From a virus (Duplodnaviria; Heunggongvirae; Uroviricota; Caudoviricetes): a DNA stretch of 9,032 bases. Positions 6,408-7,094 of the stretch are shown here, piece by piece (within the stretch, counting starts at the first letter, position 1; the number at the start of each line of letters is the position of its first letter). The notes beneath the pieces are model-generated. The model was given only the letters and a program-made list of their open reading frames with translations, had not been told where the DNA came from and searched no databases. A program made the position numbers and the translations under genes. The DNA is taken from the IMG/VR virus record IMGVR_UViG_2693429599_000008. The stretch is one strand, 5' to 3'.

Positions 6408-7094
6408 TCACTCCTTCTCTTCTTTTCCGTAGTGGAGTTGGCCAATTTTGATAAGAGGGCGTCCCTGAGATTTGCGGTGTAGATTGGTATCGCGCAGAGA
6501 ATACACACAGCCACAATATTCCTGCTGATAGAATTTTTCGCGCTTGCTGATTTCAATCATACGGGACGAGCCGCCCTGCTTGCGCCAGTTATAATCCCAG
6601 TACACCATACCCGGATAATGCGCAACAGCTCGCCGCCCACACTCGTTAACCTGCTGCATATTTTTCCAGCGTGAAATGCCCAGTGAACTGCTGATCACAC
6701 TGAAACCATTTTCAGCAGCGTACAACGCTGTCCGCTCAAAACGCATGTCAAAACACATGGTACAACGGATCCCCCTCTCAGGCTCCCATTCCATTCCTTT
6801 GGCACGTTCAAACCAGTTGTCGGTGTCGTAATCAGCATCGATAAACGGCACGCCGTGTTGTTCAGCAAAGCGAATATTTTCATCCTTACGAATTAAATAC
6901 TCTTTCTGAGGATGAATGTTCGGGTTGTAGAAAAAGATGGTGTAGTCGATTCCCGAGGCCTGAAGCGCCTCCATCACTTCACCGGAACATGGAGCACAGC
7001 AAGAGTGCAGTAGTAGTTTGTTTGCCCCGTTTGGGAGCTCCAATTTAGGCCGTTTGAAATCAGCAATAGTCATAAATATTTTTATTGGGGTCAT
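6408..7094 (-). CDS. queH: Epoxyqueuosine reductase QueH-like protein (DUF208 family), about 221-228 aa
   Basis: Translation carries the '[11 protein letters not shown]' motif plus 'FYNPNIHP' and C-terminal 'YCGCVYS' cysteine motifs, which I recognise as DUF208/QueH hallmarks. No strong SD at either candidate ATG (7094 or 7073). Confidence 0.7.

Follow-up and report, generated by a model that had tools for sequence, protein, structure and literature searches.

A QueH-family epoxyqueuosine reductase gene as cargo of lambdoid prophages in Escherichia coli

We analyzed a 9,032-nucleotide stretch of viral DNA (Caudoviricetes; IMG/VR record IMGVR_UViG_2693429599_000008), referred to below as the window, with a focus on the gene queH on its minus strand. 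By family membership, this gene is a genuine, intact and full-length member of the QueH epoxyqueuosine reductase family, and it is cargo in a slot upstream of hokD that is shared by Rac/Qin-type lambdoid prophages. Taken as a whole, the evidence makes it probable that the encoded QueH is functional, that the gene was captured once together with its promoter, and that it allows a lysogen to complete queuosine (Q) independently of vitamin B12 (cobalamin). The enzyme family, the reaction and the RefSeq label are already known, and the identification itself is ordinary. What appears to be unrecognized is the phage setting of QueH, with a single capture, a probable promoter and a prevalence of 18% beside a universal QueG.

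Identity and start of the QueH protein

An uninterrupted open reading frame (ORF) of 228 aa runs over 6408..7094 on the minus strand, within which the queH coding sequence (CDS) is best placed at 6408..7073 (221 aa from M8, stop included). The initial annotation had assigned the product to the QueH/DUF208 family, and a profile search bears this out: PF02677 (QueH, formerly DUF208) matched the ORF protein with E=1.1e-65 and 221.5 bits over model positions 1-174 of 175, nearly the whole model, where the Pfam cut-off is 23.5 bits. The sequences of the Thermotoga maritima QueH crystal structures in the Protein Data Bank (PDB) matched the window protein as well (phmmer, E=8e-22), and both matches are far above chance. 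In addition, the RefSeq gene named 'epoxyqueuosine reductase QueH' in Escherichia coli CE10 is 100% identical to the window gene, and the same holds for many other genomes.

The conserved cysteine motifs of QueH bind metal centers, and the assignment of residues to metals comes from the literature. We aligned 59 diverse representatives (32-73% identity), obtained by searching a library clustered at 50%, and all seven cysteines of the window protein fell in conserved cysteine columns (83-100% of the representatives), forming the motifs CCxxC, CxxC and CxC. In the numbering of the 228-aa frame, C111 and C114 are present in 59/59 representatives, C32 and C33 in 56/59 each, C36 in 55/59, C196 in 51/59 and C194 in 49/59. 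The CCAPC and YCGC motifs to which attention had been drawn earlier are thus present and typical of the family. CCAPC is the family norm, while the CCAPD of T. maritima QueH is exceptional, with Asp in the C36 column in only one of the 59 representatives; this residue, Asp13, is the one mutated in PDB 9DCO. The window protein therefore differs from T. maritima QueH by Cys36 in place of Asp13, and also in having a C-terminal tail that is basic and some 25 residues long, and these two features are normal for the proteobacterial QueH subfamily.

An AlphaFold2 model of the window QueH, built from 27 homologs (pLDDT 76, pTM 0.78), gave T. maritima QueH as the top five Foldseek hits (7lc7, 7lc5, 9d86, 9deu and 9dco), with target-normalized TM-scores of 0.80-0.83 and an rmsd of 2.7-3.8 A; other nucleotide alpha-hydrolase-type enzymes ranked next at E ~5e-5. 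The protein shares with the QueH family (PF02677/COG1636; T. maritima PDB 7LC5, 7LC7, 9DEU) the same full domain, predicted fold and cysteines. Judged indirectly, from its 86-92% identity to chromosomal orthologs and a dN/dS of about 0.05, it is probably functional as an epoxyqueuosine reductase.

QueH has about 220 aa and lacks a cobalamin-binding domain, unlike QueG, and it needs iron but no cobalamin. QueG (E. coli yjeS; a cobalamin and [4Fe-4S] enzyme) performs the same reaction, from epoxyqueuosine (oQ) in tRNA to Q in tRNA (EC 1.17.99.6), and QueH is its non-orthologous replacement (PMC5372724). QueG nevertheless belongs to an unrelated family, is encoded by a core chromosomal gene and requires cobalamin, and the completion of Q in E. 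coli has been shown to depend on cobalamin (PMC4646009, citing Frey 1988).

The span proposed in the initial annotation, 6408-7094, holds as an intact ORF, but its start at 7094 has to be replaced by M8, whose ATG lies at window position 7073, 21 nt inside that end. Translation of queH almost certainly starts there, because the GPEC657 allele has a stop codon within the seven codons upstream of M8, the seven preceding residues vary among alleles (MTPIKIF, MNLINTF, ITPT*TF), and the equivalent of M8 is the start both in chromosomal orthologs and in RefSeq WP_000150294.1 (666 nt). On the same three lines of evidence, the seven in-frame codons before M8 (7074..7094, minus strand) are most likely 5' untranslated region (UTR).

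The captured cassette and its promoter-like element

The closest relatives of the window protein are QueH proteins of other Enterobacterales (80-92% identity), and it shares 86-92% identity with the QueH proteins encoded on the chromosomes of Erwinia, Kluyvera, Scandinavium and Enterobacter, whose genes have non-phage neighbors. The initial annotation stressed that the gene does not sit in a queuosine operon. This is true of its location but does not set it apart, since chromosomal queH also stands alone among unrelated neighbors in Erwinia (between purL and glrK/glnB), Providencia (near tmcA and purC), Gibbsiella (between yciI and the tonB/yciA region), Scandinavium (among dehydrogenase, hydrolase and Hcp genes), Ewingella and Photorhabdus. 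Among 80 species-representative queH loci, only the copy of E. albertii had phage marker genes within 6 kb. The window copy differs from chromosomal QueH in lying in a lambdoid prophage of a host that bears QueG, whereas chromosomal QueH is the only oQ reductase.

In a codon-based neighbor-joining tree, the seven prophage alleles formed one clade in 200/200 bootstraps, sister to Kluyvera plus Scandinavium, and this monophyly points to a single capture event from an Enterobacteriaceae chromosome, followed by diversification. At the DNA level, homology with Scandinavium (blastn, 84% over 725 columns) delimits a captured cassette of about 720 bp at 6404..7123 on the minus strand, which begins 50 nt before the ATG, extends 4 nt beyond the stop and would comprise a putative promoter, the 5' UTR and the CDS. 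The homology of the GPEC657 allele with the other alleles starts at about the same 5' point as the Scandinavium homology. The cassette shows no compositional contrast, with a GC content of 0.47-0.48 against 0.475 for the window. Erwinia, raised as a donor by the first promoter match, was rejected, as Kluyvera and Scandinavium proved nearer at the protein as well as the DNA level.

Two side observations concern the route and spread of such genes. Gibbsiella (L012, BAABDG010000002.1, 5533-11570) has its chromosomal queH between yciI and yciA-yciB-yciC-ompW, and the queH-bearing prophage of CE10 is integrated next to ompW (L001 31479-35564), in the same neighborhood. This parallel may be a coincidence or a hint on the capture route; simple aberrant excision fails to explain it, because queH is not at the end of the prophage. 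Furthermore, Enterobacterales-type QueH (77-86% identity) was found in species-representative records with the unexpected names Bacillus subtilis SK7B5, Candidatus Avacidaminococcus, uncultured Kingella and Pseudomonas lundensis, which suggests contaminated or mis-binned assemblies or horizontal transfer.

Within the cassette, a conserved block, CTCTGATGCTACACT, at 7108..7122 on the minus strand is a putative native queH promoter, identified by comparing alleles and chromosomal orthologs. It contains an extended -10-like element, TGnTACACT (TGCTACACT), at 7108..7116, which ends 34 nt before the queH ATG. The block is invariant across six prophage alleles, with one base off in L007, while the DNA further upstream diverges completely. 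The closest chromosomal Enterobacterales genes have the same upstream element: TGCTACA(A/C)T lies 31-35 nt before the chromosomal queH ATG in Scandinavium, Kluyvera, Symbiopectobacterium, one Enterobacter and one Erwinia strain, and TACA[AC]T occurred 28-35 nt upstream in 9/42 chromosomal Enterobacterales loci compared with 0/42 in a control interval. Because the block is constant across contexts and the same element recurs at the same spacing in chromosomal orthologs, we infer that queH was captured with its native promoter and would be transcribable without phage early or late promoters. Such a promoter would matter in the window, where the phage early and late promoters have been deleted.

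This element also bears on whether queH serves the phage rather than the lysogen, that is, whether an active QueH is expressed from the early-right operon after induction, so that Q on host tRNAs tunes the decoding of late genes in lytic growth. The arrangement gives this idea some footing: queH is co-oriented with the replication genes and lies upstream of the antiterminator gene Q in intact prophages, no terminator was found between DUF977 and queH, so that read-through from an early promoter is plausible, and the isolated temperate phage HannyBb has queH in this position. We nonetheless regard a lytic role as unlikely. The conserved native promoter element speaks for expression independent of induction, and the remnant in the window keeps an intact queH although it has lost the early promoter region, gene Q and the virion genes, leaving no lytic cycle to serve. 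Moreover, the tRNA genes of the CE10 prophage are for Arg, Arg and Ile, none of them a tRNA that carries Q.

Apart from the promoter-like element, a palindrome with a 9-bp stem, GTCTGCTTT-GCATCA-AAAGCAGAC, was observed upstream of queH in the KY208, GF4 and HannyBb alleles, with a variant in W2-5. In L008 it lies about 75-125 nt before the queH ATG (roughly 5741-5791, minus strand), and its counterpart in the window is at 7151-7200. A 50-nt segment that contains it folds at -18.9 kcal/mol, compared with -11.4 kcal/mol for the degenerate window allele. The palindrome could be an operator or a decayed terminator; it was not counted as a terminator, as it is degenerate in the window allele and no T-tract follows.

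Cargo slot, prevalence and proposed role

The position of queH upstream of hokD is variable in content. In K-12 Qin it is occupied by relB-relE. The window and CE10 have queH there, two strains and HannyBb have queH accompanied by a truncated methyltransferase, W2-5 has queH together with KwaA/KwaB (Kiwa), and GPEC657 has queH but no hokD. In W2-5 (NZ_CP032989.1; L010 3153-4792), the anti-phage pair KwaA/KwaB lies between queH and hokD. The slot thus behaves as a cargo and defense hotspot in which queH is cargo. Like relBE and Kiwa, queH occupies the site between the replication module and hokD-rem-DUF968-Q, has a non-phage origin and is apparently an independent transcription unit; it differs from them in that it encodes a metabolic enzyme of tRNA modification and no toxin-antitoxin or defense system, and in that a terminator of its own was not found in the scan. 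A gene of non-phage origin whose presence varies at a fixed prophage position is what is expected of a moron, and the suggestion of the initial annotation that queH is one is strengthened by the conserved promoter-like element inherited from its chromosomal ancestors. We consider queH most likely to be a self-transcribed moron that makes the completion of Q independent of cobalamin, a view drawn from comparisons of sequence.

The initial annotation had also allowed that the gene might have been co-opted for something else, and a related idea is that QueH acts in phage-host or phage-phage conflict or on a non-tRNA substrate, for instance by altering the Q status of tRNA so as to evade or trigger anticodon nucleases, or by processing a 7-deazaguanine base in DNA. 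A queuosine-pathway enzyme is reportedly used in a defense system, according to the QatC paper. The slot also houses KwaA/KwaB (Kiwa) in W2-5 and relBE in K-12 Qin, and phages are known to use other enzymes of the queuosine pathway (PMC6884629). We find this explanation very improbable, the least likely of those considered here, as adjacency to defense genes is its sole positive argument. QueH, as well as DUF977, DUF1627 and DUF6645, had no match in PADLOC at E<=0.01, where the positive controls from W2-5 scored 1e-101 for KwaA and 3e-159 for KwaB, and the annotated prophages CE10 and HannyBb contain no DpdA/TGT-like or preQ0 synthesis genes. The protein keeps every conserved residue, with no sign of a new function. 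Its 86-92% identity to chromosomal stand-alone QueH, together with the strong purifying selection described below, leaves co-option without support.

Phage 7-deazaguanine gene sets (FolE, QueD, QueE and QueC with DpdA) are among the closest known systems. Those sets are likewise phage-borne genes of the queuosine/archaeosine pathway, but they make preQ0-type bases for phage DNA and lack the late tRNA-specific enzymes (PMC6884629), whereas prophages of the window type carry a single late-step tRNA-specific enzyme and, in CE10 and HannyBb, neither DpdA nor preQ0 genes. A role in DNA modification was rejected on this ground, the intact CE10 and HannyBb prophages having no DpdA/TGT or preQ0 genes. 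Hutinet et al. (2019) reported no QueA, QueG or QueH homologs in the viruses that they analyzed (PMC6884629).

Among 5,426 complete E. coli genomes, queH was present in 995 (~18%), nearly always as one chromosomal copy, and 985 of these 995 copies cover at least 80% of the gene. K-12 queG, at a threshold of at least 95% identity, matched all 5,426, in line with the initial statement that E. coli normally uses QueG, and every carrier of queH therefore has both enzymes. Among prophage queH alleles, dN/dS was 0.04-0.07 (about 0.05), and dS reached 0.45. The monophyly of the alleles and their common upstream junctions place this divergence inside prophages, and the values indicate that QueH is under strong purifying selection while prophage-borne. 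Several captures from different donors were considered as an origin of the low dN/dS and rejected on the 200/200 monophyly and the shared junctions.

Purifying selection argues against neutrality, which is the crux of a further explanation, namely that queH is a passenger that is redundant with QueG, has no fitness effect and persists through the adjacent hok/sok and spreading prophages. The presence of queG in every carrier genome would suit this, as would the report that a queG deletion left growth unchanged in one setting (PMC11841063) and the fact that hok/sok is directly adjacent and within the block retained by the remnant. Yet neutrality predicts a dN/dS of about 1 together with stop codons, rather than a value near 0.05 in a monophyletic clade with such divergence; nearly all copies cover at least 80% of the gene, and the GPEC657 prophage retains queH with no hokD nearby. 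We therefore hold a neutral passenger to be quite improbable, more so than a lytic role.

Taken together, the reading that we prefer, a functional QueH acting in the lysogen, would work as follows. A cassette of about 720 bp, consisting of an extended -10, a short A/U-rich leader and the CDS, would have been taken once from a Kluyvera/Scandinavium-like chromosome and would have landed in the variable slot that Rac/Qin-type lambdoid phages have between DUF977, a gene of the replication module, and hok/sok. Its own promoter would allow transcription in the lysogen independently of induction, even in a remnant that lacks the repressor/pR region and the Q antiterminator. QueH, a small iron-sulfur reductase, would then need no cobalamin to turn oQ into Q at position 34 of tRNA-Asn, -Asp, -His and -Tyr. 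E. coli has no de novo cobalamin synthesis, and because all E. coli have the cobalamin-dependent QueG and share this lack, the host would gain a final Q step independent of external B12, which would amount to lysogenic conversion of its tRNA modification status. The analysis itself shows that the gene belongs to the family, is intact, has a single origin, is under purifying selection, has a conserved upstream element, co-occurs with queG and lies in a cargo slot; the activity of the promoter, that of the enzyme in E. coli and any benefit of B12-independence are what we infer.

A number of points weigh against this reading. At the level of the protein, an NCBIfam HMM search gave no match for QueH, nor for DUF977, DUF1627 or DUF6645, and the RefSeq name must therefore stem from another type of evidence. 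T. maritima QueH, the only structurally characterized one, has Asp where the window protein has Cys36, so that mechanistic details may differ from it even though Cys is the family norm. At the level of expression, no Shine-Dalgarno sequence was found before M8, and upstream of queH a strict sigma-70 consensus scan that requires a -35 gave no promoter; the one proposed lacks a recognizable -35 and is argued from conservation, and its element is common to only the 9/42 chromosomal orthologs that are closest. No terminator-like site was found between the queH stop (6408) and the hok promoter (6375..6347), and the sole such site in 5800..8400, at 5946..5929, is beyond hok. At the level of benefit, we know of no clear phenotype that separates oQ from Q, and any advantage of the conversion is putative; the unchanged growth of the queG deletion counts here as well. 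Finally, our literature searches for QueH of prophages or phages found no paper.

The reading can be extended to the population, such that a constitutive, cobalamin-independent QueH converts the tRNA state of the host and lets about one in five E. coli finish Q under B12 scarcity, for which it would be selected. This is a tentative proposal, and we lean slightly against it. If it were true, strains with QueG only would be left with epoxyqueuosine at low B12, with decoding or stress phenotypes altered enough for selection. QueH would then be, as far as our literature searches show, the first tRNA-specific enzyme of the queuosine pathway recognized as phage cargo, and carriers would offer a natural genetic handle for the difference between oQ and Q. 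Should B12-independence hold, natural E. coli would differ in the cobalamin dependence of Q completion, which would be relevant to corrinoid competition in the gut and to work that ties Q to virulence and biofilm, and a natural isogenic system for comparing oQ with Q would be at hand.

In databases, QueH is unevenly labeled. Among the matches listed in E. coli genomes, all bear the RefSeq name 'epoxyqueuosine reductase QueH'. In IMG/VR, a relative is encoded on at least 190 contigs of viruses or prophages; in the best 80 of these, the protein is 100% identical, with DUF977 nearby in 80/80 and hokD in 56/80. Of the phage genomes deposited, that of the temperate Escherichia phage HannyBb is the only clear carrier of queH (95% amino-acid identity), which is annotated there as hypothetical (PP925841.1 33011-33697; L002 8001-8687). 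The PHROGs family that holds this QueH, phrog_3217, is labeled 'unknown function', and phage annotation pipelines should carry the QueH name over to it. Other 'phage' records with QueH homologs are unannotated fecal contigs, very large records of doubtful viral nature, including Acinetobacter phage MD-2021a, of 328-379 kb, and Staphylococcus or Listeria 'phage' entries with 33-52% identity; they look like bacterial DNA deposited as phage and were excluded from the count of phage QueH.

The prophage remnant around queH

The initial annotation placed queH in a prophage between an upstream gene pair and a hok/sok module, and this context was confirmed by domain and RNA matches. On the minus strand, the order is a truncated DUF1627 gene, DUF977, a 174-nt gap, queH, hok/sok and the C-terminal half of an SASA-family esterase (DUF6645), followed by holin, lysozyme, Rz, a C-terminal fragment of the tail protein J, and nleB. 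The upstream neighbor of queH is a DUF977/YdaW-like gene at 7248..7688 (minus strand; PF06163 E=9e-28; phrog_142 E=5e-46), whose PHROG is labeled 'Ren-like exclusion protein'. The DUF1627 gene at 7689..8288 (minus strand; PF07789 E=6e-99) has lost its N-terminus by deletion, being 199 aa in the window against a 771-nt gene in CE10, with the deletion junction at about 8277-8281.

On the other side of queH, the mok/hokD frame lies at 6015..6227 (minus strand), a 70-aa ORF with the Hok domain at residues 25-66 (PF01848 HOK_GEF E=1.6e-22), and this frame is annotated as hokD in CE10 and others. The hok mRNA leader/sok antisense region of this type I toxin-antitoxin module is at 6165..6340 (minus strand; Rfam RF01794, 120.5 bits, E=9e-28, against a gathering score of 59), and both a Hok toxin ORF and the sok/leader RNA structure are thus found beside queH. 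A sigma-70-like promoter (TTGGCG, 17 nt spacer, TAGAAT), found by consensus scan at 6347..6375 on the minus strand, just downstream of the queH stop and directly before the Rfam match begins at 6340, is probably the hok mRNA promoter.

The intact prophage of E. coli CE10 matches window positions 5812..8281 at 99.96% identity. Relative to that prophage, three blocks have been lost from the window. One, of 4.7 kb, spans the P-like ATPase and O-like genes, YdaT and the cro/repressor region; a second, of 6.2 kb, contains DUF968, RusA, Q, a DNA methyltransferase gene, three tRNA genes and the part that encodes the N-terminal half of the esterase; the third comprises the morphogenesis genes (all head and tail genes). 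The junctions fall near 8277-8281, near 5762-5812 and below 2427, and what remains includes the lysis cassette, hok/sok, queH and DUF977. The window is thus a heavily decayed lambdoid prophage remnant that retains the DUF977-queH-hok/sok block. Its contiguous arrangement was found in none of the complete E. coli genomes searched. A contig of E. albertii matches window 5927..8384 at ~99.5%, which is below the 99.96% of CE10.

Three further features of the remnant were observed. The 335-aa 'DUF6645' ORF at 4840-5847 (minus strand) is a truncation product, namely the C-terminal half of a prophage protein of ~620-630 aa (in RefSeq, an SASA-family carbohydrate esterase), because it aligns to positions 299-631 of 634 in phrog_143 and, in CE10, to the 3' portion of a 1,854-nt gene. 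At the end of the window, positions 1-981 (minus strand) hold a full-length gene for an NleB/SseK-family type III effector (Pfam E=3e-181) with a GC content of only 0.34. The C-terminal fragment of the tail-tip protein J, at 1912-2550 (minus strand), adjoins nleB and overlaps the Rz-like ORF, an arrangement that suggests that the lysis cassette has been joined to the tail-fiber/effector cargo end of a prophage.

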